Virus record (IMG/VR): IMGVR_UViG_3300036768_000196
Span: 1 to 54,069 of that record
Strand: one strand, 5' to 3'
Length of the DNA stretch: 54,069 nucleotides
Source of the DNA: a virus
Taxonomy: Duplodnaviria > Caudoviricetes
Shown: in pieces, positions 23,783 through 52,173 of the stretch
How positions within the stretch are numbered: position 1 is the first letter of the stretch
How the letters are laid out: every line of letters starts with the position of its first letter
Program-made: the position numbers and the translations under genes
The notes under the pieces: model-generated
Told to the model about the DNA's origin: nothing
Databases searched by the model: none
The model's input: the letters and a program-made list of their open reading frames with translations, nothing else

Positions 23783-23785
23783 TAT

Positions 23786-24355
23786 TTACTTTGCCTTCCT
23801 TACCGATACGTACCTGATCACCACGAACGGGCCATATTGCGTGTGCGCCTTCTCGTCTGCCCTATGTGGCTTCCACCCAGCCTGAAGTTCAACAGGACCG
23901 AACCTGTTCCACCACCGCCAGATGCCTTCGCTCTCGCGCCACACAAGCCCGGGCGTCTGCGGCTTGTCAAACTCTCCGTCGCTCGGTCGTGCGCTGGTGA
24001 CCCACGAGAGGCCATACATGCGGTTGCGCCAAAGCCACCAGACGCTCGTCAGGTAGCGGCCAACCTTGTCTCCGAACTTGTTGGTTGCCCATTCGAGCAC
24101 TTCGCGCGTCTGCGGCATACGAACGTCACCTGGCAGCCGCTCGTCAGGAGTCCCCCAGATGTATGCCCACCGAGGCAGGTCGCCACGGATAGCAGGGTGT
24201 TCGTAGTCGTCCGCACCTCCGGTCCAAGTCGTCGGCTTGTCGTCCCACTTGGCAAAGAGTGCCACGATTGGAACCAAGAGCGCCAGAGGCCACGAGATAA
24301 TCTCGACTACGATTGCGATCACCAAGTCATTCAGAATCAGGAGAGACTTCTTCAT
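23786..24355 (-). CDS. Phage membrane protein
   Basis: N-terminal TM; LPRW..WGTPD and WLWRN motifs; GC-rich. Confidence 0.65.
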   Translation of the reverse strand: MKKSLLILNDLVIAIVVEIISWPLALLVPIVALFAKWDDKPTTWTGGADDYEHPAIRGDLPRWAYIWGTPDERLPGDVRMPQTREVLEWATNKFGDKVGRYLTSVWWLWRNRMYGLSWVTSARPSDGEFDKPQTPGLVWRESEGIWRWWNRFGPVELQAGWKPHRADEKAHTQYGPFVVIRYVSVRKAK

Positions 24356-35970: not shown

Positions 35971-36132
35971 ATCTATCTTATTGATTTAAAAGGGATTTCT
36001 AGTACATCTTTTCCATACATAGACTTAGCAGCGCCGACACCGTGCGATATCGGCAAACTTTTCACCTTGTGAAATTTCTAAAACTTTTAGAACGTGCTGC
36101 GCGCAGTACCTTAAACGCGGTATAGCGCGAGC

Positions 36133-36161
36133 TTGCGTTATTGCCTAAGCCGTGCTACAAT
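36133..36161 (+). promoter_or_regulatory. Probable early sigma70 promoter
   Basis: TTGCGT-17 nt-TACAAT with TGn extension, upstream of the first + arm gene. Confidence 0.6.
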
Positions 36162-36211
36162 GCTTCTTAGATTGTGAGGTTGGCTCACAATCATCACTTG
36201 GGAGATTGACT

Positions 36212-36406
36212 ATGAAGTCTGGACGTGAGGAAATCATCCGCATTCTTATGAAACGCGACAAGCTTTCATATATGGAAGCTTTCGCGCAGTACAACGAAGG
36301 AATGAAGGCAGTGCATCGGGCATTGCTCGATGGTGATGACGTCGAAGCGGTTTTCTGCGAGGAATTCGGTCTGGAACCGGATTACCTTTTCGACGTTCTG
36401 GCATAA
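36212..36406 (+). CDS. Small early phage protein
   Basis: SD GGGAG; LMKRD...EEFGLEPDY pattern. Confidence 0.75.
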   Translation: MKSGREEIIRILMKRDKLSYMEAFAQYNEGMKAVHRALLDGDDVEAVFCEEFGLEPDYLFDVLA

Positions 36407-36426
36407 CTTACTTGGGAGAATGCACC

Positions 36427-37068
36427 ATGCAAGTCGAAATCGAAGGCAAAGGCGCGGTGAACGTTCCTGACAAGCTGGCCGCCGAAGTGCAATCGGCGGT
36501 TAAGACTACCGAAGGATCTACCGCCAAATGGCGGGATTTGTGGCCGAAGGTTGAAGACACCTTTGGCGATAACGCTTTCACGCGCGGCACGCCTGAATAT
36601 AAGGCAGTGCACCGCTTCGTGGCATCCATGCATCCCGCTTGGCGGGAAGCTCCCGAAAGGGGGGATAACTCGGATGCTGCTAACTCGGCGCGTGCGGGAC
36701 GCGCACAAGCCCTGACCGTGGCATCCGTGGCCATGTCGCTTATGGCCAAGTATCGTGCCCAACATTATAATGAGGGCGCTGAACGTGGCCCCCGGCGCAA
36801 GATTGCTTACGCTGAAAAGCGTACCCTGATCATCAAGACTATCGCCCGCTTCGCAGAAAAGGGCGATGCCCAAGCTACCGCCGACTTGGCCGCATTGCGG
36901 GCTGCTAAGGCCGACAAGCAAGCCGAAAGGATCGATGTAGCACTCGCGCAGCCCCGCACGATCGGCGCAGAGTCGCGGCAGCCGGGTCCCGTCACGGTCA
37001 CCAAGCCCGCACCCGCCAAAGCCAAGGTTCGCAAGGCCAAGGCCGAAGCCCAAACCGCCACGGCATAA
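36427..37068 (+). CDS. GC-rich early protein with Lys/Ala-rich tail
   Basis: SD GGGAG before ATG 36427; ends KPAPAKAKVRKAKAEA; terminator follows. Confidence 0.7.
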   Translation: MQVEIEGKGAVNVPDKLAAEVQSAVKTTEGSTAKWRDLWPKVEDTFGDNAFTRGTPEYKAVHRFVASMHPAWREAPERGDNSDAANSARAGRAQALTVASVAMSLMAKYRAQHYNEGAERGPRRKIAYAEKRTLIIKTIARFAEKGDAQATADLAALRAAKADKQAERIDVALAQPRTIGAESRQPGPVTVTKPAPAKAKVRKAKAEAQTATA

Positions 37069-37080
37069 CGTGGAACTCAG

Positions 37081-37110
37081 AAAGCCCGCTTAACCGCGGG
37101 CTTTTTTTTT
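37081..37110 (+). terminator. Intrinsic terminator
   Basis: AAAGCCCGC-TTAACC-GCGGGC followed by a T run; a second hairpin plus T run at about 37126-37156. Confidence 0.85.
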
Positions 37111-37252
37111 GTCCTTTGATCCTACAGCCGCGCCAGCATAGGTGCGGTTTTTTTTTATGCCCAGTTCCTCGCACTGTGACTGCGCCGAAAAAGGTCGGTC
37201 AACAAAAAGCGGCGACAAGCCCAAAGCTGCAAAACCGCTGCGGCGCGTCAAT

Positions 37253-37281
37253 TTGACATAGCCTTGGAAGTGTTGTATAAT
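37253..37281 (+). promoter_or_regulatory. sigma70-type promoter
   Basis: TTGACA-17 nt-TATAAT exact consensus. Confidence 0.9.
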
Positions 37282-37290
37282 AACAACATA

Positions 37291-37321
37291 GACTGAGAAA
37301 ACAGTCATCGTTCTTTCACAA
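37291..37321 (+). promoter_or_regulatory. boxB-like hairpin plus boxA-like antitermination element
   Basis: GACTG-AGAAAA-CAGTC then CGTTCTTTCACAA (compare boxA TGCTCTTTAACA), about 10 nt after the -10 box. Confidence 0.55.
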
Positions 37322-37364
37322 TGCAAAAATTCTAAAAGTTTTAGAAAAAGCTTTTAGAAAAAAA

Positions 37365-37930
37365 CTAGAAGGCAAGGCGCGCATGATCCTGCCCATATGG
37401 GTGCGGGAAAAGGCAAAAGCAGTTGCGCTGTATAAAAATTATTTTTAGTGCAATTGGACTGGAACGGCGTAAGGTAGGGTGCAGTTAATAAAAGCAATGC
37501 CCCACAGACAAACCGAGATTCAGTGCCGAACGACATAGACGCGACTATGGAAAGCTGGTCGGAGAGCCAGCGATGTAGTGCGAAACCTGCCTTCGAGTCA
37601 GCAGTGCTGCGGGTTGGCATCCGTGGCACTGTTGGCGAAGCGACTAGCATAAAGTCCCCAAAAGGGATGGTCCGTGCGCGGTAGGACAATCTGGTAGTGC
37701 GGAATCGGGAAATCCGATAGAGGGTCACCGCACGGTTGGCCAGAATCGCTATAGAAAATGAACCCCTCGACTCTATTCCCGGTGCTTGACCCAAACAGGC
37801 CGGAGAATCCTGCACGCAGCCTGAATAGGATTTCACTCGAATCCTCGGCGTGCCCTTCGATTCCCTGTACGGCGAAAGCACTGAAAGGAATTGAGAGCAA
37901 GGCTATCGAAGAGGTAGCCTTGTCATCAGT
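37365..37930 (+). ncRNA. Candidate large structured non-coding RNA (family unassigned)
   Basis: No + strand ORF in the track; GC-elevated; many stems with G-U pairs, long-range helices and loop-downstream complementarities. Confidence 0.65.
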
Positions 37931-37948
37931 CCCTTGAAAGGAGCCAAA

Positions 37949-38293
37949 ATGGCTATCTATATTTGTAACGAATTCTCTCTGTCTATGTTGGACAGAGAAA
38001 CCCAGCTTGAGGAAACACGAGAAGGGTGCGGGCGTGCTCCCATACCTATCAGCGCAGACACGGTGCGCCTAATGTTGAATACTGTGTGGACGCCGATTAT
38101 ATCGGCGGTAAGGCACGCCGACACTGCCAGAATCTTCTCTGTCATCCTAGGTTACCAAATCGAGGCAAACCGGGTGAGTGTTAAGCTCTACCGTGACGAT
38201 AAAGCTATCGTAGGCCTGTATGTAGGACCAAAGATTCCCAAAGGTGCTACTGCCCTCCCAGAGGGGGCAACCATCGAGTGGTGGCTAATATAA
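37949..38293 (+). CDS. DUF1874/STIV B116/YddF family protein (AcrIII-1 ring-nuclease homolog)
   Basis: NEFSLSML, ISAVRHADTA, NRVSVKL and GPKIPKGATALPEG match the family motifs NAFS, GH, NR and RLxEG. Confidence 0.8.
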   Translation: MAIYICNEFSLSMLDRETQLEETREGCGRAPIPISADTVRLMLNTVWTPIISAVRHADTARIFSVILGYQIEANRVSVKLYRDDKAIVGLYVGPKIPKGATALPEGATIEWWLI

Positions 38294-38311
38294 TTAACCT
38301 CTCTTTTCTGT

Positions 38312-38339
38312 AGTCCACCAATCGGTGGACTTTTTTTTT
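38312..38339 (+). terminator. Intrinsic terminator
   Basis: AGTCCACC-AATC-GGTGGACT followed by a T run. Confidence 0.8.
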
Positions 38340-38361
38340 CTCCAAAGAAAGGAGATTTCCA

Positions 38362-38781
38362 ATGGAAAAGAAATACGTGCTCACTGACGAAACACGGATT
38401 GTCGAAGGAAAAACCTTGTACCGCATTAAAGCGTTGCGTGATTTCGGTAACGTCAAGGCAGGGCAATTAGGTGGATGGGTTGAGAATGAATTGAACCTAT
38501 CACAACTAGGAAACTGCTGGATCGCTGATGATGCATGTGTATATGATAGAGCAACCGTATCAGACGATGCTCAGGTTAGTGATAAAGCGAACATCAAGGA
38601 ATTTGCTCACGTTTTTGAAAACGCAAAAATTTTTGGAAATGTGTATTTGAAAAATAATGTAAGGGTATTCGGAAACGCAAAAATATCTGGAAAATGTTTT
38701 TTACTTGATGAGGTACAAGTATCCGGTGATGCACATATCACCGGAAAAACATTCATCATGGGACGTGCTCTTATTTCGTAA
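38362..38781 (+). CDS. Phage hexapeptide-repeat (beta-helix) protein
   Basis: KYVLT...LYRIKALRDFG.VKAG.LGGWVE.E.NLSQ.GNCW plus VxxNAx repeats. Confidence 0.8.
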   Translation: MEKKYVLTDETRIVEGKTLYRIKALRDFGNVKAGQLGGWVENELNLSQLGNCWIADDACVYDRATVSDDAQVSDKANIKEFAHVFENAKIFGNVYLKNNVRVFGNAKISGKCFLLDEVQVSGDAHITGKTFIMGRALIS

Positions 38782-38786
38782 TCCAA

Positions 38787-39005
38787 ATGATCAAAGCGAT
38801 TCGTGAACAACGTGACGTAGCAGCACAGGCCCTTAATAAGCTCCGACAATTAGCATCCTCGATGGCGAAGTCTAGTTCGGACCCTCACCATAGAGCAGTA
38901 GCTAGGGCCTATGCCAGTGCGTCTCTGGCAGCTTTAGGAGAAATTTCGAGCGACGCAATTCTCGAAATACTCCAAACGTCTGACGAAGACGAATTTGATT
39001 CCTAA
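38787..39005 (+). CDS. Hypothetical protein
   Basis: ORF in the early operon. Confidence 0.55.
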   Translation: MIKAIREQRDVAAQALNKLRQLASSMAKSSSDPHHRAVARAYASASLAALGEISSDAILEILQTSDEDEFDS

Positions 39006-39026
39006 AACCAGAAAGGAAAAAGCAAA

Positions 39027-39227
39027 ATGAGATACTTCCCAATCGAAATGATCCAGAACGGCAATAAGTTCCTAGAAAGGAACTTATTTCTCGGAGGCAC
39101 TCCCCACCTGAAACGGGCAGAATCTGTACTGAAAAAGAAAACAGTAAATGGATACATCACAGATGAGAATAGAAAAATAGTTCTCGTACTTTCAGGAGGC
39201 ACTGTGATTTTCAAAAAAGAAATTTGA
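39027..39227 (+). CDS. Hypothetical protein
   Basis: SD AAGGA; ORF in the operon. Confidence 0.55.
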   Translation: MRYFPIEMIQNGNKFLERNLFLGGTPHLKRAESVLKKKTVNGYITDENRKIVLVLSGGTVIFKKEI

Positions 39228-39245
39228 AGAAGGGAGTAGCAAAAA

Positions 39246-39536
39246 ATGAGTGTTACAAAATACTTCAGAGAATTTCTCTGGCTCGTTTGTCAACAAGGAT
39301 TACAGGATCTCCCTGAATTCATGGAATCTATCAGGGTAGCTGAAGCAATAGGTAGAGGAATAGATAACTCAGCGAGAAGGCTGGAATTCTTTTCACATGC
39401 CACAAAAGATTTGATGGAAGGTAGAAAAATAGAATACCTTCCTGATGACCTACTCTGGATATTACATCGTCTCCCTATTACTACTTACGGAGGGGAAAGT
39501 ACAGTTTTGTGGGATGTTCTGGTAGGACGCATTTAG
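39246..39536 (+). CDS. Hypothetical protein
   Basis: SD GGGAG; ORF in the operon. Confidence 0.6.
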   Translation: MSVTKYFREFLWLVCQQGLQDLPEFMESIRVAEAIGRGIDNSARRLEFFSHATKDLMEGRKIEYLPDDLLWILHRLPITTYGGESTVLWDVLVGRI

Positions 39537-39544
39537 GAACAAGA

Positions 39545-39621
39545 GGGCCGTTAGCTTAATCGGTTAGAGCAGCCGACTCATAATCGGCGGGTTACAGGTT
39601 CGAATCCTGTACGGCCCACCA
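39545..39621 (+). tRNA. tRNA with CAT anticodon, probably tRNA-Ile2 (lysidine)
   Basis: Full cloverleaf; GGGCCGT/ACGGCCC acceptor stem; anticodon loop CTCATAA; TTCGAAT T-loop; encoded CCA; C4-G69 and C5-G68 pairs typical of TilS substrates. Confidence 0.93.
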
Positions 39622-39639
39622 TTCACCAAGGAGACAATC

Positions 39640-39711
39640 ATGAAAACGGGGCTTGTACTGTTGCTAACTTTAGCCGTTTGGTTTGTAATTTTGTTCTTAA
39701 TGACTTTTTAG
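39640..39711 (+). CDS. 23-aa hydrophobic peptide
   Basis: SD AAGGAG; MKTGLVLLLTLAVWFVILFLMTF. Confidence 0.55.
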   Translation: MKTGLVLLLTLAVWFVILFLMTF

Positions 39712-39724
39712 AAAGGAGTAAATC

Positions 39725-40027
39725 ATGACTCAGGAAAACAAAATCACAATCAATGGTGTTGAATATGTGCGTGCTGATTCAAAGCCATCCGGCAACCGTG
39801 CTGTTGTGGTTGTAGACCGTGGTTGGATTTTTGCAGGGGATGTAACACGAAAGGATGGACGTATCTACTTGTCAAACGCTGTGTGGGTGTTCCGTTGGTC
39901 TTCTGTAGGGTTCGACGGAGTGATTCGAAATCCAAAAGACGCAGAAATTCGAAAAATAGATGATGTAGACATTCCCGCTCACAGCGAAGTGTTTTCCGTT
40001 CCAGTTCACGACAAATGGGGGCTTTAA
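39725..40027 (+). CDS. Phage protein with Sm-like pattern (DUF6948-like)
   Basis: VVVDRGWIFAG...LSNA.W.FRW; upstream of a Gly-rich ORF. Confidence 0.65.
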   Translation: MTQENKITINGVEYVRADSKPSGNRAVVVVDRGWIFAGDVTRKDGRIYLSNAVWVFRWSSVGFDGVIRNPKDAEIRKIDDVDIPAHSEVFSVPVHDKWGL

Positions 40028-40314
40028 TGCTACCAGTTGGTGATAATGATGAAGATGTTGGAGGCCGTGGTGACGGGTACGGCTATGGCTACTACGACGG
40101 CATGGGTTTTGGATGTGGTTACAGTTGCGGGGACGGCTACGGCTATGGCTATGGTGTCAGAAATGGCAGCGGATACGGAGATGGTGATGGATACGGAAAC
40201 GGACACGGCGATGGTACTGGCTTCGCCAACTGTCATGGTGGATGCTACTACGATGGCTCAGGTAGAGGCTTCGGTAATGCAGGACGAGTTAAAGGATTAG
40301 TTGGTGTAAAATAA
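40027..40314 (+). CDS. Gly/Tyr/Asp-rich low-complexity protein
   Basis: GDGYGYG repeats; TAATG overlap with the upstream stop. Confidence 0.7.
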   Translation: MLPVGDNDEDVGGRGDGYGYGYYDGMGFGCGYSCGDGYGYGYGVRNGSGYGDGDGYGNGHGDGTGFANCHGGCYYDGSGRGFGNAGRVKGLVGVK

Positions 40315-40331
40315 AAAGTGGGATTAGCGCT

Positions 40332-40706
40332 ATGGCTAACTTTAGCCTTTTGGTTGATCGTGATATTTTTGATGACATTCTTAGGATGGGCAGGAAAATA
40401 ACGCAAAAAATGGTCGGTCAACAAAGGCACGTGGCCATCGCGTTAAAAAAGAACAAGATAATCTCGGTTGGGATGAACTCGTATGTAAAAACGCATCCCA
40501 AGCAAGCTTATTTTGCAAAGTTAGCAGGCCAAGACAAAAGGCAATTTCTCCATGCAGAAGTGGACGCATTGATTCGCGGAGCAGATGCGGACACTCTTAT
40601 CGTGCTCCGGTTTTCCAAGAAAGGAGAATTACGCAACGCGAAACCCTGTCCTGTTTGCATGGAAGCTATTAAGGCTTCCAAAGTTAAGTGTGTCATCCAT
40701 TCATAG
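40332..40706 (+). CDS. Zinc-dependent cytidine/dCMP deaminase-like protein
   Basis: HAEVDAL...PCPVC. Confidence 0.85.
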   Translation: MANFSLLVDRDIFDDILRMGRKITQKMVGQQRHVAIALKKNKIISVGMNSYVKTHPKQAYFAKLAGQDKRQFLHAEVDALIRGADADTLIVLRFSKKGELRNAKPCPVCMEAIKASKVKCVIHS

Positions 40707-40715
40707 GAGCAAAAA

Positions 40716-40907
40716 ATGCCAGGAATCAATGTGGAAGGAGTTGAGTTTTTTGTTGTCAGCAGGGGAATCGTGGATGTATTCACGAAAACCGGATGGGATC
40801 ATTGGTCACGTTTCAAATGGACCAAGGAAGGTCCAAAACTTATTGGTGGCCTTCCCGTGACCAAAAATGAGTACCATGTCGTGAAAAACTTCATGAAGAA
40901 TATGTAA
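40716..40907 (+). CDS. Hypothetical protein
   Basis: SD AGGAG. Confidence 0.65.
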   Translation: MPGINVEGVEFFVVSRGIVDVFTKTGWDHWSRFKWTKEGPKLIGGLPVTKNEYHVVKNFMKNM

Positions 40908-40908
40908 T

Positions 40909-41559
40909 ATGTGCTACCTGTATACATCCACAAAAGATAAACCTATGCACTTCGTTGAGCGTATCTGTGCTGGAGGTGTCTTTGGGAATTTGGTGAAAGA
41001 AAAGAAATTAAAGTATGTAGGTTTCAAGAACAAATTTATCTCGGAAAGGCATAATGTCATTGTCGATTGGCTCGAAACAATAGAAAAAGCATTTGAAATA
41101 AAAGTTATAAAAATAGAACAAGCCGACGAAGAACCTGAATTTGAAGACGTGAAAAAGAAAAAATTCAATGGTTATGTATGGGAATTTCCTGAACATAACT
41201 ACAAATGGAACATTATGCACTTGGCTGTGCTGTTAGCCAGACAGCCAGTGGAAAATGAATCCAGTGTAGGAATAAAAAACGAAAATAATGTCAAAAATCC
41301 ACTGAGACTTACAGGAGAAAAACCTAAAGATCCTTTAGGTAAATTTCTTGTCCTGACAAACGAAGAATTGTTTGATCGTGCTGCTGTACACGGATTATCA
41401 CTCTTTAACTTCGCAAGAAGTGCAAAAGGATACAGTTTACACTCATTCAAGCTTGATAAAGCGATCGAAGATCTTAGGAATAAAACGGATATGCTTATAA
41501 ATGATGCAGCAAATTTGGGTGTAATTTTTGCCGGTTATTCTCCAAGAAAAGGACAATAA
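40909..41559 (+). CDS. Hypothetical protein
   Basis: 216-aa ORF leading into the ligase cluster. Confidence 0.65.
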   Translation: MCYLYTSTKDKPMHFVERICAGGVFGNLVKEKKLKYVGFKNKFISERHNVIVDWLETIEKAFEIKVIKIEQADEEPEFEDVKKKKFNGYVWEFPEHNYKWNIMHLAVLLARQPVENESSVGIKNENNVKNPLRLTGEKPKDPLGKFLVLTNEELFDRAAVHGLSLFNFARSAKGYSLHSFKLDKAIEDLRNKTDMLINDAANLGVIFAGYSPRKGQ

Positions 41560-41560
41560 A

Positions 41561-42124
41561 ATGTCTGCACTGTTTTTATGGGGAGGTGAAGACATTTCCC
41601 CATCCCTATACGGACAAAAACCTGTGCATACCAATGCACCGGCTAAACCTTCTCAACGTGACTTAAAAGAGATCAAGCTAATCAATGAAGCTGTAAAAAG
41701 TCAACGTCCTATTATCGGCATCTGTCGTGGCGCTCAACTTCTTTGTGTAATTCACGGCGGAAAACTTTGGCAGCATGTAGAAAAGCATGCCGGCACTGTT
41801 CCGCATGAACTAGAATTAAAGCTAAAAGATGGAGTAGAAAAAGTTTATTCTAACTCCACACATCATCAGATGATGATCCCTGACGAGGATGCAGAAATCA
41901 TCGCTACTACTACAGAACCTTTGTATCCTTACCGATGGAGTGAAGACAAAAATCCTGTAAAGGTAGTGGATAAAGATGTCGAAATTCTGTATCTACCTAG
42001 ACTAAACGCGCTTGCAATTCAGGCACATCCAGAATGGATGCCAAAGAATTGCAAATTCAACCAAATGCTTCGTCAACTTGTAGAGGAGAAATTCAATGGT
42101 GAAGTATCCCTCCCTTGGCTGTGA
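41561..42124 (+). CDS. Class I glutamine amidotransferase/peptidase C26
   Basis: GGEDI.P.LYG, GICRGAQ and QAHPE catalytic triad. Confidence 0.9.
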   Translation: MSALFLWGGEDISPSLYGQKPVHTNAPAKPSQRDLKEIKLINEAVKSQRPIIGICRGAQLLCVIHGGKLWQHVEKHAGTVPHELELKLKDGVEKVYSNSTHHQMMIPDEDAEIIATTTEPLYPYRWSEDKNPVKVVDKDVEILYLPRLNALAIQAHPEWMPKNCKFNQMLRQLVEEKFNGEVSLPWL

Positions 42125-42884
42125 TCCGGAATGGTTCCTTCAAACCGAAGATGGAAAAGTAGTCTCAGCAATTGGAAAGATCGGAGGCACCAAGCAAGAA
42201 CCTCGTGTTTTGTTTACTGAGAAAATCCGAGGAAAAGAATTCCCTTTTTGCGTTCAGGAAGACAACGTCCTGCTTGAATACAACATCCCACCAGCTACAT
42301 GCAAAAGTGAGTGGCTCGATTTCAATCTGCTAATCCAAAGCAAGATTAAAGAGGAACTTCAAAAACAGGGGCTTAAGCCACTCATCGTTCCTTCTTATAT
42401 CATGCCAAAAGAGGAGATGAATAATCCGTTCGCTTGGGTATTTGGGTGCGATCCTGATTACAACGCATGGACACGTAAACCAAATCCTAATCCAGCATCA
42501 CAAAACAAGTTCCTTAGGTCTGCTGGAGGACATATCCACATTGGATTCAAGGGAAACAAAGAGGACAAGATACGGTTCGTGAAACTACTGGACCTTTTCC
42601 TAGATGCACCTTTGATGCTAATGGATAAGGATCGGCGCAGGCAGGAGCTTTACGGTAGACCGGGTGCGTTCCGATTCAAGCCGTATGGTCTAGAATACAG
42701 GACGCCAAGTAATTTCTGGACGCAGAGTTTGCAGACAATGGAGATGGTATACAACTGCGTCATGACGGCTTGGGAAAACTTCTACAAGTTAGAAGTTCCT
42801 GATGAAGTTCAGCAGATTCTCCTGCGAGGAAATGACGAAGAAATCTCTGAGATGGTAAATAAATATGTATACTCATCCCTATAA
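42096..42884 (+). CDS. phiEco32-like COOH-NH2 ligase type 2
   Basis: LGCDPE.F, QEDNV..E, GCDPDYNAW, RSAGGHIHIG and EYRTPSNFW. Confidence 0.9.
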   Translation: MVKYPSLGCDPEWFLQTEDGKVVSAIGKIGGTKQEPRVLFTEKIRGKEFPFCVQEDNVLLEYNIPPATCKSEWLDFNLLIQSKIKEELQKQGLKPLIVPSYIMPKEEMNNPFAWVFGCDPDYNAWTRKPNPNPASQNKFLRSAGGHIHIGFKGNKEDKIRFVKLLDLFLDAPLMLMDKDRRRQELYGRPGAFRFKPYGLEYRTPSNFWTQSLQTMEMVYNCVMTAWENFYKLEVPDEVQQILLRGNDEEISEMVNKYVYSSL

Positions 42885-43416
42885 ACCTCAGTTTAATCTC
42901 CCAGTGAATGGAGATTCAATTAATGATCTCGTAAGAAAATGGGGAGACTCTTTTTCTTGTGTTTATACCGATAAAGAATTTCTATTCGGATTCATCTCAT
43001 CTTTAGATGATTTAATAGTAAATTTGTGGAAAAAGGATGGCGGAAAGTTTTTATCAACAAAGGCAAAACCAACTTATTTCTATTTTCCATCGTGTTTATT
43101 TCCACACAGTAACTACATATATTTCCTACAAAGGAAAAACGAAAATGTATTCAAAGTAGGAATCAGTTCATTAAACTATAATCTCTTTTATTACGATAAA
43201 AGAGAAAAGAAATTTCTATATGATTCGGTAGAAGGTAATCCCGCATTATTCAGTTATGCTTCATTCATCACTAGCGGAATGGAGCATGAAAACATATGTG
43301 GTAATTTCTGTTATATTGACGGAAAACTTTTCTATAAAAATGATGAAGTTTCCCCTAGACTATTTCATTTAGTTCCTAAATTCATTCTCAACAAGTGGGG
43401 ACTAAAATGCCCATAG
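42865..43416 (+). CDS. Hypothetical protein
   Basis: AT-rich ORF inside the ligase cluster. Confidence 0.6.
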   Translation: MYTHPYKPQFNLPVNGDSINDLVRKWGDSFSCVYTDKEFLFGFISSLDDLIVNLWKKDGGKFLSTKAKPTYFYFPSCLFPHSNYIYFLQRKNENVFKVGISSLNYNLFYYDKREKKFLYDSVEGNPALFSYASFITSGMEHENICGNFCYIDGKLFYKNDEVSPRLFHLVPKFILNKWGLKCP

Positions 43417-44219
43417 TTTATGAAATTTATAGCCACGCTGAGGATGTAGAAACAAAATTGTATCCTCAGATCGAATATGGAAGGAAAAAATTTCCCGGAT
43501 TGAAAACCTATATGGGGTGGGTGTCTAACCCAATAGGTATTGAAATTGAAATAGAGGGATACAAATTCATTGACCCAATGCTGAAAAATGAACCACTCTT
43601 CTACTGGAAGACGATAAAGGATGGTTCTTTAAGGGATGGAATAGAGTTCTGCTCGATTCCCCTTGTCAGCAGCGGAATTGATTATGCATTGGCAGAAATC
43701 GAGCCATTCCTTGCCCAATGCAGAGTTTCTCACAGAACCGGGATTCACGTTCACAATAATGTTTCAAGGCTAACAAAAGAAAAACTTTATCTTCTGTTTG
43801 CATATTATATTCTTTTTGAAGAAGAATTCTTTGGATTCGTAGATCCTTTAAGAAAAGCAAATCCTTATTGTGTTCCTGTAATTGGACTTGATGTAGGAAT
43901 CTCCCCGAAGAAATACTTTGCTTTTGACATGATGGAATCACTAAATAACTACAGGACAGTAGAATTCCGTCATTTGGAAACAACCCATGATGTAAGGAAA
44001 ATACGGAGGTTTTTACAACTTGTAACAAAGCTGCATAGGTTCATTCATATCAATGAAGTTAAAAAGCTTATAAACATTTTGAACTCGATTGAAGATCAAT
44101 CAGAATATGAAAAGCTTTTAGACAAAGTCTTCGGTAAAACAGCCAGCTTCTTGAAAAAAACTCTCTGCCCAGACAATCTGTTTTATGCTAGGTTCATAGC
44201 ATATAAACTCTCCCGCTGA
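43407..44219 (+). CDS. Putative amidoligase (COOH-NH2 ligase)
   Basis: IGIEIEIE, DGSLR..IEF, RTGIHVH and TVEFRH. Confidence 0.85.
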   Translation: MPIVYEIYSHAEDVETKLYPQIEYGRKKFPGLKTYMGWVSNPIGIEIEIEGYKFIDPMLKNEPLFYWKTIKDGSLRDGIEFCSIPLVSSGIDYALAEIEPFLAQCRVSHRTGIHVHNNVSRLTKEKLYLLFAYYILFEEEFFGFVDPLRKANPYCVPVIGLDVGISPKKYFAFDMMESLNNYRTVEFRHLETTHDVRKIRRFLQLVTKLHRFIHINEVKKLINILNSIEDQSEYEKLLDKVFGKTASFLKKTLCPDNLFYARFIAYKLSR

Positions 44220-44226
44220 GACAAAA

Positions 44227-45456
44227 ATGTGCGGAATTTACGGAATCATTTCAAAGAACGGAACGGAGATCAACAAAGATGCCCTATATCAAATGGGGCT
44301 TCTTTCTGCATTACGGGGCACTGACAGCACCGGGCTATGCCTAATCAAAAAGAATGGTGATGCTCGAATCATCAAAACTATTGGCCCTGTAATGAACCTG
44401 TATTATGAAAAGGGCTGGAAAAAATTCGAAGAAGAATTTAAAGATGCAGTAGCAGTGTTTGGTCACTGCCGTTATGCCACCGTCGGAGATGTAGATAAAA
44501 AGAATGCACAGCCTCTTGTAAATGGCAACCTGATTCTATTGCATAACGGAACACTTACAGCAGTCAAAACAGAAAAAGGAGAATCAGACTCTACTGTTTT
44601 CTGTAAGAAAATAAAGGAAATGGGAGTGAAGGATGCCGTAAAATCTACCGCAGGTTCTATGGCAATCGTTACGTATGACTTGAATGACAAGAAAGTTACT
44701 TTCTACAGGAATTATCAAAGGCCATTATCGTATGCAAACACACAAAACTTTATTTATGTAATGTCAGAAAGGTCTGCTTTAGAGTATCTGTTTACCAGAA
44801 ATAATATCAGATTCGATGATAAATCTGACTTCGATGGTTATACTTTATATCATTTGGATATTAATAATCCTGCTGCTGGAATAGAAAAAGGTGATGATCT
44901 TTATGTCTCTGTAACAAGAAGGGAAAGCCATACAAATTTTTTTCCAGTTTTTGGAAAAGGTTTTTGGAATGACCTTTCCCCTCATTACAAGGAAGGTGGA
45001 GAAATAAACTTCATCGTTGAAAGCTTGTTTGAAAGTTCACAGAAAGGACAATATGTCTATATGTGCAGCGATGAAGATAACAGGCGTATTTTCTTTAAGA
45101 CAGACAAGAAGATTGATTCATTACTAGGTAAGATTGGAACAGGAGAATGTTGCAGCGTAGTAAAACATAACAACAGCTTCATGTATCAAGTAAAATACCG
45201 GACCATCAAATGGGATGATGAAAAACCAGACGACGATGAAGATGAAGTAGTCACTCTGGATGAATTAATTCCAAGAAAACAGTGGCTTGAGCTAGTCAAG
45301 AAAGAAGAATGCTCTGGCTGCAATAGGTCAATTCTCCTTGATGAGCATTACAACACGATGGTTTGGGAAGATGTAAAAGGGAAATGGCATCTCCTTTGCG
45401 GAGATTGTTATAATCGTAGCACTCCAGTTGCAAGTAACGAAAGGGTATTCACATGA
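44227..45456 (+). CDS. Class II (Ntn) glutamine amidotransferase with a C-terminal Cys-rich region
   Basis: MCGIYG, RGTDSTG, GHCRYAT, HNGT and DS; C-terminal CSGC...CGDC. Confidence 0.9.
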   Translation: MCGIYGIISKNGTEINKDALYQMGLLSALRGTDSTGLCLIKKNGDARIIKTIGPVMNLYYEKGWKKFEEEFKDAVAVFGHCRYATVGDVDKKNAQPLVNGNLILLHNGTLTAVKTEKGESDSTVFCKKIKEMGVKDAVKSTAGSMAIVTYDLNDKKVTFYRNYQRPLSYANTQNFIYVMSERSALEYLFTRNNIRFDDKSDFDGYTLYHLDINNPAAGIEKGDDLYVSVTRRESHTNFFPVFGKGFWNDLSPHYKEGGEINFIVESLFESSQKGQYVYMCSDEDNRRIFFKTDKKIDSLLGKIGTGECCSVVKHNNSFMYQVKYRTIKWDDEKPDDDEDEVVTLDELIPRKQWLELVKKEECSGCNRSILLDEHYNTMVWEDVKGKWHLLCGDCYNRSTPVASNERVFT

Positions 45457-46184
45457 TTATCGTACCATATAGTTGGCATTCCAAGTCTGTATGGAAACTG
45501 GCAGAAGAGCTGAATTTCTGGCTAGTATCCAGAAAAGAAATGGTTACCGAAAAAGGAATCAATTGGGGATGTAGCAAATTATGGATTGAAAACCCAGGTC
45601 TGGTGCTAAATAAGGATTATGCAGTTGAACGCGCAGTGTTTAAGAAAAAGTTATATTCCATTCTAGAACAGAATGGTATTCCTGCCGTAGAAAGCACAGA
45701 CGACAAAGAAGTAGCAAAAAGATGGCTTGACGAAGACAACATCGTATTTGCAAGAAAAGACGGATTGTCAAAAGGCAAAGGAATCAAAATCTTACATCAA
45801 GGAGATGAAGTACCCGAAGCAGACTTCTATACAAAATATATCCAAAAGAGAAAAGAGTTTAGGATCCATTGCACTAAATTCGACGTGTTCGATATAACCC
45901 AGAAGAAGCGAAAGCGGGATGAAAAACAAAATGAATTCATTAGAAACAGAAAGAATGGATGGATCTTTGCCAGACAAGATCTAAAGATCCCTAACAATAT
46001 TGAGGATCTGGCACTTAAAACAATTAAAGCACTAGAGCTTGATTTTGGTGCAGTAGATATAATCTATGATCTGGATGCAAAAAAGTTAAAGGTGCTGGAA
46101 GTAAATACTGCGCCGGGTCTGGAAGGGACTACCCTTCTTAAATATGTAGAAATGTTCAAAAACCATCCTCACTTTGCGGAGTAA
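45453..46184 (+). CDS. ATP-grasp ligase (RimK-like)
   Basis: INWG, GKGI, EFRIH, LDFGAVDII and LEVNTAPG. Confidence 0.9.
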   Translation: MIIVPYSWHSKSVWKLAEELNFWLVSRKEMVTEKGINWGCSKLWIENPGLVLNKDYAVERAVFKKKLYSILEQNGIPAVESTDDKEVAKRWLDEDNIVFARKDGLSKGKGIKILHQGDEVPEADFYTKYIQKRKEFRIHCTKFDVFDITQKKRKRDEKQNEFIRNRKNGWIFARQDLKIPNNIEDLALKTIKALELDFGAVDIIYDLDAKKLKVLEVNTAPGLEGTTLLKYVEMFKNHPHFAE

Positions 46185-50139: not shown

Positions 50140-51261
50140 ATGACTAAGAAAATTCTTACAATAGATACTGAAAACACCATCTACAACAAAGGGAATCCAT
50201 TCGATACCAGAAACATCAATGTATGTGTTGCATATAAATTCGATGATGATGAGGGTGTATTGTTTCATGACAAGAAGTCATTGGAAGAAAAAATAAACAA
50301 GGCAGATCTTCTTGTATTTTTTAACGCAAAGTACGATCTTCATTGGCTTAGGAAACTGGATATAGACATCAAGAACAAACCCATCTGGTGCTGTCAACTG
50401 TTCGAGTTTATCCACAATAGGATGCAGAACCCATATCCGTCACTAGATGGTGTGTGCGAAAAGTATGGACTTGGCTCAAAGATCGATGTCATCGAAAAAG
50501 AGTATTGGAACAATGGGATAAATACTGACAAGATTCCCAAGGAAGTTCTGGCAGAGTATGCTTTACATGATGTGAGACTTACTTATGAGCTTTACAAGAA
50601 ACAAATGAGTGTAATGCGACCACATCAGGCAAAGCTGATGATGATCTCAATGGCAGATCTGAAAGTACTTGCTGAAATGGAATGGAATGGAATTCACTTT
50701 GACATAGAAAAAGCAAAAGAAAAAGAAAAAGAAGTTGATGACAAGATTAAGGAGATACAGGACAAGCTTTCTATTCATCACAACATTCCCAACTTCAATT
50801 GGAATTCTAACGAGCACCTTTCTGCTTTACTTTATGGTGGCGATCTTACTTTCACCGTTAAAGTTCCTGATGGGGTGTATAAGTCAGGACAGAAAAAAGG
50901 ACAACTTAAGCTTAGGAATGAGGAAGTAACTTATACACTTCCAAGGAAATTCACTCCAGTCAAAGGATCAGAACTCAAAAAGCCAGGTTTCTGGTCAGTA
51001 GATGAAACTTATCTTTTGAAACTCAAAGGAGGGGATCGAGAACTCATTGACAGTATCCTTAAGATAAAGGAATTGACCAAGCTAAAGACAACCTACTATG
51101 AGGGATTTCGAAAGCTGTATGAGGAAATGAACTGGAAAGATAACCTTTTGCATACGACTTTTACTCAGGTAGTGGCAAGGACAGGTAGGCTTTCAAGCAA
51201 ATCCCCGAACATACAAAATCTTTCAGATGAAGCACAACAGCTTATTACGACAAGATGGTAA
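50140..51261 (+). CDS. Family A DNA polymerase, N-terminal part (3'-5' exonuclease plus thumb)
   Basis: ExoI DTE, ExoII FNAKYD, ExoIII YALHD; ends TGRLSSKSPNIQNL. Confidence 0.9.
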   Translation: MTKKILTIDTENTIYNKGNPFDTRNINVCVAYKFDDDEGVLFHDKKSLEEKINKADLLVFFNAKYDLHWLRKLDIDIKNKPIWCCQLFEFIHNRMQNPYPSLDGVCEKYGLGSKIDVIEKEYWNNGINTDKIPKEVLAEYALHDVRLTYELYKKQMSVMRPHQAKLMMISMADLKVLAEMEWNGIHFDIEKAKEKEKEVDDKIKEIQDKLSIHHNIPNFNWNSNEHLSALLYGGDLTFTVKVPDGVYKSGQKKGQLKLRNEEVTYTLPRKFTPVKGSELKKPGFWSVDETYLLKLKGGDRELIDSILKIKELTKLKTTYYEGFRKLYEEMNWKDNLLHTTFTQVVARTGRLSSKSPNIQNLSDEAQQLITTRW

Positions 51262-51443
51262 AACAAACCGATTCGATATACTACACCATTCTGAGACTGA
51301 AAGATCACATGGATAACGATGAGCTTTCTCATCTTATCTCGGAGATGGAATCAGTTTATCCTGATCTATTCGAGGAGCTAAGAAAGAAGATTACGTTCAA
51401 GCAGATGTCAAGACAGATCCCTGCTCTTTTGAAAAAGCAATAA
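51255..51443 (+). CDS. Small hypothetical protein between the polymerase halves
   Basis: 62-aa ORF overlapping or abutting both polymerase ORFs. Confidence 0.6.
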   Translation: MVKQTDSIYYTILRLKDHMDNDELSHLISEMESVYPDLFEELRKKITFKQMSRQIPALLKKQ

Positions 51444-51444
51444 G

Positions 51445-52173
51445 ATGTATGTGCAATGTGATGCATCTCAATTGGAATGGCGAGTTCTTAACTGGCTGGC
51501 TAATGATCCAGTAGGTCTTCGTGAGCTTAATGAGGAAATAGATGTTCATTCGGCGAATCAAAAGGCATTTAATCTACCAACGAGACTTATCTCCAAAAAG
51601 TACCTATTTCGTACTATTTACCGCGGCTCTGGCTGGAGTTTCGCTAATGATCCTGATTTTATGGGCGTTTCTGATGATCCTGACTTTTGGGATGAAATAA
51701 ACAGGAAGTTCTATGACAAGTACAAAGGAATTGACAAGTACCATAGAAACCTTGCAGATCTGGTTATAAGAAACAAGCCTATTTGCTCACCACTTGGCCG
51801 TGAATGGCTAGTTGGACTAAAAGAGAACGGAATGATTCCGTGGACAGTCTTGACTAATTATCCAGTGCAGGGTACTGGAAATGATCTTCTGGCAATAACA
51901 AGAATAAGCCTAAGAAAGAACATGAATGAAAAAAAGATGCGGTCCCTTCTGGTATCTACTGTCCACGATTCGATCGTTGCTGATTGCCCTGAGGAGGAAG
52001 CAAAAGATGTAGCCAACCTCATGTACGATGTATTTGACATTTACCTTCCGAAGAATGTGAAGGCTATCTGGAATATAGACTTGCCATGCAAGTTTCCATG
52101 CGAGGTTAAAATTGGTCCTAACCTCAAGGACATGGATAAATACCAAAAACAGGGTATTGACAGGCAGGACTGA
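51445..52173 (+). CDS. Family A DNA polymerase, C-terminal catalytic part
   Basis: Motif A DASQLEWR, motif B RLISKKYLFRTIY, motif C VHDS. Confidence 0.92.
   Translation: MYVQCDASQLEWRVLNWLANDPVGLRELNEEIDVHSANQKAFNLPTRLISKKYLFRTIYRGSGWSFANDPDFMGVSDDPDFWDEINRKFYDKYKGIDKYHRNLADLVIRNKPICSPLGREWLVGLKENGMIPWTVLTNYPVQGTGNDLLAITRISLRKNMNEKKMRSLLVSTVHDSIVADCPEEEAKDVANLMYDVFDIYLPKNVKAIWNIDLPCKFPCEVKIGPNLKDMDKYQKQGIDRQD

Follow-up and report, generated by a model that had tools for sequence, protein, structure and literature searches.

AcrIII-1 has been described as a protein family with a highly conserved active site and strict specificity for cyclic tetra-adenylate (cA4). Here, we examine a member of this family (DUF1874) encoded by an open reading frame (ORF) at 37949..38293 (+) of the virus record IMGVR_UViG_3300036768_000196, whose entire 54,069-nt stretch we refer to as the window and whose DUF1874 product we refer to as the window protein. 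The ORF is a genuine DUF1874 gene of AcrIII-1/Crn2 fold that descends from cA4 ring nucleases. With a probability that we put at about 0.5, sequence comparisons suggest that the ancestral cA4 pocket is no longer under selection, that the protein would now be an impaired ring nuclease or none, and that the cassette carrying its gene is being lost; a weakened or dying copy is more likely than a new weapon. An earlier reading of the sequence alone (the original prediction) had proposed three outcomes for this gene, namely a new specificity, a non-catalytic sponge, or decay. The sister-allele, constraint and cassette evidence presented below favors decay, leaving the other two outcomes less favored.

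AcrIII-1 fold and altered lid of the window protein

The ORF comprises 114 codons followed by TAA, and its assignment was supported by Pfam, PHROG, phmmer, and AF2/Foldseek. The window protein matched Pfam PF08960 at 30.0 bits (E = 5.8e-7; aligned residues 33-88 only) and thereby passed the curated cut-off of 26 in the hidden Markov model search against DUF1874 that had been suggested as a check. It also matched phrog_5063 (E = 5.7e-12), and a phmmer search of PDB sequences returned STIV B116, AFV3-109, and SIRV1 gp29 (E ~1e-3). An AF2 model built on 86 relatives had a predicted local distance difference test score (pLDDT) of 94.9 and a predicted template modeling score (pTM) of 0.86, and it conformed to the AcrIII-1 fold (a five-stranded sheet with three helices). 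All Foldseek matches at E ≤ 0.01 were AcrIII-1/Crn2 chains (6scf, 2j85, 2j6b, 2x4i, 8y7f, 8y7g), and the next match had an E of 0.49. We found no NCBIfam family match for the window protein or for its canonical sibling P0005. Scores against PF08960 were 26.6 bits and 21.6 bits for the relatives P0003 and P0004, 48-49 bits (residues 4-100) for the canonical siblings P0005-P0007, and 49.1 bits for the DUF1874 protein of Thermoanaerobacterium phage THSA-485A. The profile score and the exclusively AcrIII-1/Crn2 structural matches bear out the proposal that the ORF encodes a DUF1874/AcrIII-1 homolog. While the public gene call for the window protein (P0002) begins at M13, we prefer the start at 37949, since the alignment with full-length relatives begins at residue 1 and the N-terminal motif of the family is preserved in residues 1-12. 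A Shine-Dalgarno-like GAAAGGAG can be read in the sequence at 37936..37943 (+), 5 nt 5' of this ATG.

The motif changes described in the original prediction were all found as stated (NEFS at residues 7-10, RH at 55-56, NR at 74-75, and KIPKG at 95-99), and L90 and I96 are further rare changes beyond them. Relative to the family, the window protein thus carries A8E, G55R, Q90L, R95K, L96I, and E98K. We scored the rarity of these residues in 231 relatives (88 from a word-indexed search and 150 cluster representatives, with overlaps removed), a set that is biased towards sharing the window's residues since its members were picked by similarity to it. E8, R55, and K95 each occurred in 0/231 relatives, where the usual residues are A (197), G (228), and R (228), respectively. 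L90 occurred in one relative (usual residue Q, 229), I96 in three (L, 225), and K98 in five (E, 220). At other pocket positions the window agreed with most relatives (H56, 226; R75, 229; N7, 216; S10, 209; T59, 215). Across 15 ligand or catalytic positions it deviated at six, ranking third among 232 sequences, 219 of which have two deviations or fewer. More deviations were found only in P0097 (10) and P0114 (8), both without the catalytic His. As a separate observation, P0097, P0114, and P0149 carry Glu/Asp-Asp instead of Gly-His and are therefore missing this His, and four other relatives of ~210-260 aa (P0090, P0122, P0135, P0182) contain two DUF1874 matches and may be single-chain pseudo-dimers. 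Assuming the consensus codon at each position, all six changes in the window protein are single-base substitutions, and of mixed types. We considered a diversity-generating retroelement as their source and rejected it on these grounds and since no reverse transcriptase PHROG annotation was present among the 66 window ORFs scanned.

We then assigned roles to these positions from homologues that have been characterized experimentally. In SIRV1 gp29, H47 is the general acid (H47A is >2,500-fold slower), R85, a loop residue, 'locks' the dimer in its closed form, and contacts with cA4 are made by the side chains of N8, S11, N13, S49, T50, R66, and Q81 (10.1101/778746). In Csx1-Crn2, the Ala-x-Gly ahead of the His in one monomer is the docking site for the lid Arg from the other, the His imidazole is stabilized by the lid Glu (equivalent to E88 of SIRV1 gp29), and the Crn2 substitutions N451A, H495A, R514A, and E536A each markedly lower cleavage (PMC11317161). 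Equivalences to SIRV1 gp29 were taken from a profile alignment and pair N8 with N7 of the window protein, A9 with E8, S11 with S10, G46 with R55, H47 with H56, T50 with T59, R66 with R75, Q81 with L90, R85 with K95, and E88 with K98; the placement of L90 on Q81 is that of the profile, and a single-sequence alignment shifts this column by one residue. The N-terminal residues of Crn2 were mapped by motif and their placement is presumptive.

By these equivalences, the window protein possesses the general-acid His (H56) and the pocket floor corresponding to N8, S11, T50, and R66 (N7, S10, T59, and R75). It has K95 and R55 instead of the lid Arg (R85; Crn2 R533) and its docking Gly, K98 instead of the lid Glu (E88; Crn2 E536), and L90 instead of the lid-strand Gln (Q81). 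The whole lid (Gln, Arg, Leu, Glu) together with the docking Gly is thus altered, and a Glu now stands beside the phosphate-binding Asn. As judged from the alignments, the window protein lacks three to four residue-level features that are common to tested members of the family. A non-exhaustive search of the AcrIII-1/DUF1874 literature found no description of comparable lid variants among the matches listed.

The mechanism that we propose starts from ancestors which, by homology with tested members, would have been homodimeric, metal-independent ring nucleases with a mobile lid that closed over cA4 before cleavage, with the conserved His as general acid. In the window protein, K98 replaces the lid Glu that supports this His, K95 the lid Arg that holds the dimer closed, L90 the lid-strand Gln that contacts cA4, and R55 the Gly that precedes the His and serves as docking site for the lid Arg, and E8 adjoins the phosphate-binding Asn. 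Purifying selection on the cA4 pocket would have ceased within a small clade, probably after E98K; cleavage of cA4 would now be poor or nil, and the cassette would be expendable and disappearing from the population. What we infer in this scheme is dimer formation, the activity of the ancestors, the consequences of the individual substitutions, the order in which events took place, and expression early in infection.

Constraint in the nearest clade

The nearest relatives of the window protein are P0003 and P0004, which are ~80% identical to it and come from short metagenome contigs. I96 and K98 occur in both of them as well; both retain G55, Q90, and R95 and have A57P, T59I, N74S, and R75H or R75Q instead. 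The three sequences form a clade (support 100/99) whose stem measures 0.53 changes per column, compared to 0.13-0.28 for neighboring stems. DNA encoding P0003, P0004, or the canonical P0005 was absent from the 14 loci recovered in a metagenome scan, the best of which was 54% identical.

To compare constraint, we counted a column as family-conserved when its conservation across the remaining members of the family was 85% or higher, a definition under which 26 of 95 compared columns qualify. Such columns account for 6 of the 20 differences between the window and P0003 and for 6 of the 16 between the window and P0004 (30-38%). The corresponding share in 1,699 further pairs, whose identity was 60-92%, had a mean of 3.7%, a 95th percentile of 10%, and a maximum of 28%. 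Since the share of differences that falls in conserved columns approximates the share of columns that are conserved, family-conserved positions evolve like any other within this clade. Moreover, all six carriers of K98 have at least two other deviations at 14 key positions, compared to 30 of 226 non-carriers (Fisher p = 9.6e-6), and the association persists when the window clade is counted once (4/4 carriers; p = 4.1e-4). The simplest history consistent with these sequences is probably that E98K arose first and was followed by drift of the pocket, which took a different course in each lineage.

The same alleles bear on the proposal that the enzyme has become a binder or has acquired another ligand, acting as a cA4 sponge that cleaves slowly or not at all, or binding or cutting cyclic tri-adenylate (cA3), cyclic hexa-adenylate (cA6), or a product of CBASS, an antiphage signaling system based on cyclic oligonucleotides. 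The changes make the pocket more cationic (net +2 charges per monomer) and keep the floor that holds the ring while the catalytic helper Glu is lost. In addition, H495A forms of Crn2 still bind cA4 tightly (KD, the dissociation constant, ~32-62 nM; PMC11317161), the use of sponges against cyclic nucleotides is well established among phages, and viral enzymes that act on cA3 and cA6 have been predicted in a review (PMC8284326). However, the altered residues extend beyond catalytic helpers to ligand contact and lid locking (the Q81 and R85 equivalents), E8 places a negative charge beside the phosphate-binding Asn where a contact by Crn2 S452 has been described (PMC11317161), and G55R would be expected to make the pocket smaller, not larger. 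The sister alleles lack the new residues and lose floor residues, so that no common new pocket unites the clade. We consider conversion to a binder or to another ligand distinctly unlikely, and a single clade-wide new specificity is hard to reconcile with sister lineages that are altered at different pocket residues; a new specificity confined to the window's own allele is possible.

We give similarly little weight to a variant of this idea in which the allele has been re-engineered and is not decaying, the lid Arg having in effect moved to the Gly-His position and the lid Glu to strand 1, such that the protein would act on another ligand or hold cA4 without cutting it. The pressure for such a change would perhaps come from hosts with a changed signal or, by analogy, from hosts that guard their nucleotide pool as Panoptes does against nucleotide-depleting phage proteins.

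The gene as a presence/absence cassette

We next compared positions 36900-38500 of the window with Logan contigs of two public runs in which this region is present, both labeled microbial mat metagenome (X1 and X2). The comparison delimits a presence/absence cassette at 37944..38355 (+) that consists of a spacer, the ORF, a terminator, and a second copy of GAAAGGAG. The two GAAAGGAG copies bound the cassette, and the second (38348-38355) precedes the next gene, a YdcK-like gene at 38362-38781. Contigs joined position 37935 directly to 38351 (X2, n = 3; X1, n = 1), to 38347 (X2, n = 1), or to 38361 (X2), with 21-28 nt on the shorter side of each joint and likeness set at 80%. A loose contig end likewise continues without a break into the beginning of the next gene. 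Since mat contigs join the leader directly to the YdcK-like gene, the cassette looks dispensable. The in-frame translation of a different loose end, at 38255, is GPRLPEGATQ, the same ten residues as in P0005 and P0006, indicating that a canonical allele lives in the same mats. Summed contig depth was lower over the ORF than over both flanks; this measure cannot rank genes and we do not count it as evidence.

The DUF1874 gene has a GC content of 50.4%, higher than that of the genome as a whole (43.3%) and of the next gene (39.5%). A viral contig of 67% GC (L001) shares with the window both a DUF1874 gene, which is the closest canonical relative for which DNA was recovered and is 63% identical in amino acids, and the gene at 23783-24355. 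From this sharing and the composition of the gene, acquisition from higher-GC phages is probable. The genome also contains an ORF of 60.6% GC at 36427-37068 and a patch of 58% GC at ~22-24.4 kb, which together suggest mosaic imports from high-GC phages. Separately, another locus (L060:1200-4450) contains about six tandem paralogues of the YdcK-like beta-solenoid gene.

Promoter, leader and terminators of the transcription unit

A sigma-70-type promoter, TTGACA-17-TATAAT, lies at 37253..37281 (+) and matches the consensus at 12/12 positions; only four perfect TTGACA-N16-18-TATAAT sites occur in the 51,512-bp genome unit. Downstream of the ORF, an intrinsic-terminator-like hairpin, AGTCCACC-AATC-GGTGGACT followed by a T run, is present at 38312..38339 (+) and shows 72% identity over 32 nt to the terminator at 37083-37114 (family D1). 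With its own promoter and terminator flanking it, the DUF1874 gene is the sole ORF of its own unit. The original prediction had made it the first protein of the early transcript, which does not hold, as two ORFs and two terminator-like hairpins precede it on the plus strand. The ORFs, at 36212-36406 (64 aa) and 36427-37068 (213 aa), each have a GGGAGA ribosome site and no match in Pfam, PHROGs, or NCBIfam. The hairpins (37079-37106 and 37126-37149) stand between these ORFs and the promoter.

These signals matter for the possibility that the protein still functions as a cA4 ring nuclease and anti-CRISPR through a rewired lid, in which R55 and K95 would together replace the Arg lock, E8 or a water would take the place of the lid Glu near the His, and an early strong promoter would deliver the protein in time to blunt type III signaling. 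The perfect promoter and strong ribosome-binding site fit the early expression that an anti-CRISPR needs (10.1101/2023.01.10.523387), and the retained H56, N7, S10, T59, N74, and R75, the confidently canonical fold, and the prospect that the charged changes at 8, 55, 95, and 98 could pair also speak for such an enzyme. We nevertheless regard it as unlikely. E536A of Crn2, at the position of K98, markedly reduced activity (PMC11317161), and on chemical grounds a Lys beside the His should disfavor its protonated form. R55 stands in place of a Gly kept in 228/231 relatives, the Q81 equivalent is gone, and the sister alleles are without the scissile-phosphate Arg. Conserved columns are unconstrained in the clade, and genomes without the cassette exist in the same mats.

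Several observations weigh against lost selection on the pocket, our preferred reading. The catalytic His is kept and the pocket floor, including N74, is intact; R95K and L96I are conservative changes. The charge changes to E8, R55, K95, and K98 could form a compensating network, and P0097 is likewise altered at 8, 55, 95, and 98 together, a joint change which suggests that these positions are coupled. AF2 returned the canonical fold with confidence, although the method is insensitive to point changes. The ORF is whole and is furnished with its promoter, ribosome-binding site, and terminator, and contigs identical to the window allele are found in both mat runs, one of which may be the source sample. 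With regard to constraint, positive selection on the pocket gives the same uniform spread of changes as relaxation does. The clade numbers three sequences, two of which (P0003 and P0004) were called from M13 and have uncertain N-terminal residues, and the comparison is one of amino-acid differences.

Between the promoter and the ORF lies a structured leader of ~660 nt (37288..37948, +; 5' end inferred from the promoter) that contains no convincing ORF. Its minimum free energy is -242.5 kcal/mol, compared to a shuffle mean of -197.9 kcal/mol (z = -7.9), and 0/20 shuffles were as stable. Among the metagenome variants listed, eight fell at paired positions of the leader; seven keep the pair and one breaks it, and two of the pair-keeping variants constitute a single A-U to G-C double change at 37535/37548. 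We regard the leader as a candidate non-coding RNA, which in the mat metagenomes also precedes the next gene in cassette-less genomes. Rfam returned only tRNA at the gathering threshold for the window and nothing within the leader even at E ≤ 10. Relatives of the leader were likewise not found: blastn against all loci retrieved gave chance-level matches only, two exact leader patterns each had 0 matches in viral contigs, and loci around homologues of the next gene held no leader-like DNA. An 18-nt inverted repeat between the transcript 5' end and codons 9-14 was absent from the whole-transcript fold and was rejected as chance.

Within the leader, a 17-bp palindrome, TTCTAAAAGTTTTAGAA, is found at 37330..37346, and its only other copy (36076-36092) lies upstream of the preceding early ORFs. 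Allowing up to two mismatches, the window contains two matches where 0.12 are expected by chance, and 2/100 shuffles reach two. With the form TTCTAAAANTTTTAGAA ahead of each early unit, the palindrome is a candidate shared operator or RNA hairpin.

Genome setting and chromosomal homologues

The virus record is complete, with a direct terminal repeat of 2,557 bp and a unit length of 51,512 bp, and a PHROG scan of 66 ORFs identified this virus, which comes from a microbial mat, as a tailed phage. Structural and lysis genes occupy the minus strand from ~35.6 kb down to 8.5 kb, and early, nucleotide-metabolism, and replication genes occupy the plus strand from ~36.1 kb across the terminal repeat to 8.5 kb. 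None of the 66 ORFs received a CRISPR-related PHROG annotation, and a megablast of 36000-42000 against the phage genome collection returned no match. For the large terminase, the best matches were to a record of an uncultured Caudoviricetes (48.7%) and, over 76% of the query, to an Alcaligenes phage (54.5%); with the nearest terminases this distant (49-55% identical), the host cannot be named. DUF1874 homologues in genome loci were at most 56% identical to the window protein and came from many phyla.

The surroundings of these homologues bear on whether the protein could have a role independent of its pocket, such as binding a host protein or serving the cellular function of chromosomal DUF1874 genes that have no obvious CRISPR context. 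Half of the genome loci (21 of 42; L018-L059) are titled Patescibacteria-type and place the gene beside RNase Y, ClpP, and trigger factor, a housekeeping context that does not suggest anti-CRISPR use, and a TrmB-like regulator lies near the DUF1874 gene in 12 of the 47 loci analyzed. In its native infection SIRV2 gp37 is not an anti-CRISPR and inhibits a host lysine methyltransferase (10.1101/2023.01.10.523387), and within the window clade the non-pocket segments SLSMLD and LPEGATIEWW are still conserved. On the other hand, there is no known or predictable partner, the interaction with the methyltransferase is stated to be confined to crenarchaea (10.1101/2023.01.10.523387), the surroundings of chromosomal homologues were checked for CRISPR only within 5 kb per side, and the cassette is dispensable in the population. 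A pocket-independent role is therefore, in our estimation, very unlikely.

Other loci and window genes merit mention in their own right. Three loci in metagenome-assembled genomes of Myxococcota and Proteobacteria (L024:594-2243, L040:6669-8309, L053:150-1712) encode proteins of ~520-550 aa with a C-terminal DUF1874 domain, whose N-terminal ~440 aa have no Pfam match and which may be effector-ring-nuclease fusions unlike Csx1-Crn2. On the plus strand of the window, 41528-46184 encodes a glutamine amidotransferase, a COOH-NH2 ligase, an amidoligase, a GlmS-like amidotransferase, and a RimK-like ATP-grasp protein, together a phage-encoded peptide or modification system of amidoligase type. A family-A-like DNA polymerase is encoded at 50140-52173 (+) as two ORFs (373 and 242 aa) 183 nt apart, for which a split gene, an intron, or a frameshift is possible. 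Lastly, a 99-aa ORF at 40015-40314 (+) consists largely of Gly-Tyr-Gly and Gly-Asp-Gly repeats and has no family match.

Discussion

If the window protein is inactive, it represents a natural allele that keeps the catalytic His while the lid Arg, Glu, and Gln and the docking Gly are replaced, and could test which of these residues are needed. Seen alongside the canonical allele and the genomes without the cassette in the same mats, the locus would then offer a population snapshot of the loss of an anti-defense gene, and would bear both on how long such genes persist once they are unprofitable and on the idea, derived from guard systems such as Panoptes, that depletion of a signal can become a liability. 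Activity on another ligand would instead make it the first member of DUF1874 whose specificity has changed. Counts of AcrIII-1 in phage genomes that are based on hidden Markov models will include such alleles, and their function should not be assumed.

Among known systems, Crn2 and Csx1-Crn2 (8Y7F, 8Y7G) have the same fold as the window protein. Crn2, however, is cellular and is linked or fused to type III CRISPR effectors, whereas the window gene resides in a phage genome and is not assigned to Crn2. The Acb2, Tad1, and Tad2 sponges provide a functional analogy only, as our searches with the window protein revealed no relation to them in sequence or fold. SIRV2 gp37 is a precedent for a viral DUF1874 protein that is non-essential and acts by other means, but as described it keeps the residues for cA4 cleavage and is a middle/late gene, in contrast to the altered pocket of the window protein and a promoter that looks early and host-recognized (10.1101/2023.01.10.523387).

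The archaeal AcrIII-1 proteins (SIRV1 gp29, 6SCF/2X4I; STIV B116, 2J85; AFV3-109, 2J6B) belong to the same Pfam family and share the fold, matching the window model with a Foldseek probability of 1.00 and template modeling scores of 0.63-0.72 at an identity of ~18-22%. Equivalents of their H47, N8, S11, T50, and R66 are present in the window protein, whereas G46, Q81, R85, L86, E88, and A9 correspond to R, L, K, I, K, and E, respectively. Unlike these archaeal genes, the window gene is carried by a bacterial-type phage with sigma-70 signals. In this respect the closest counterpart is the DUF1874 protein of Thermoanaerobacterium phage THSA-485A (AFK87686.1), the sole match in the phage collection (33.6% identity over 98% of the query), which is of similar length and likewise of bacterial phage origin. 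The THSA-485A protein abolished cA4-dependent, but not cA6-dependent, immunity (10.1101/778746), and it differs from the window protein in retaining all of the canonical motifs (NAFS, GHADTA, NR, AQ, and RLPEG).

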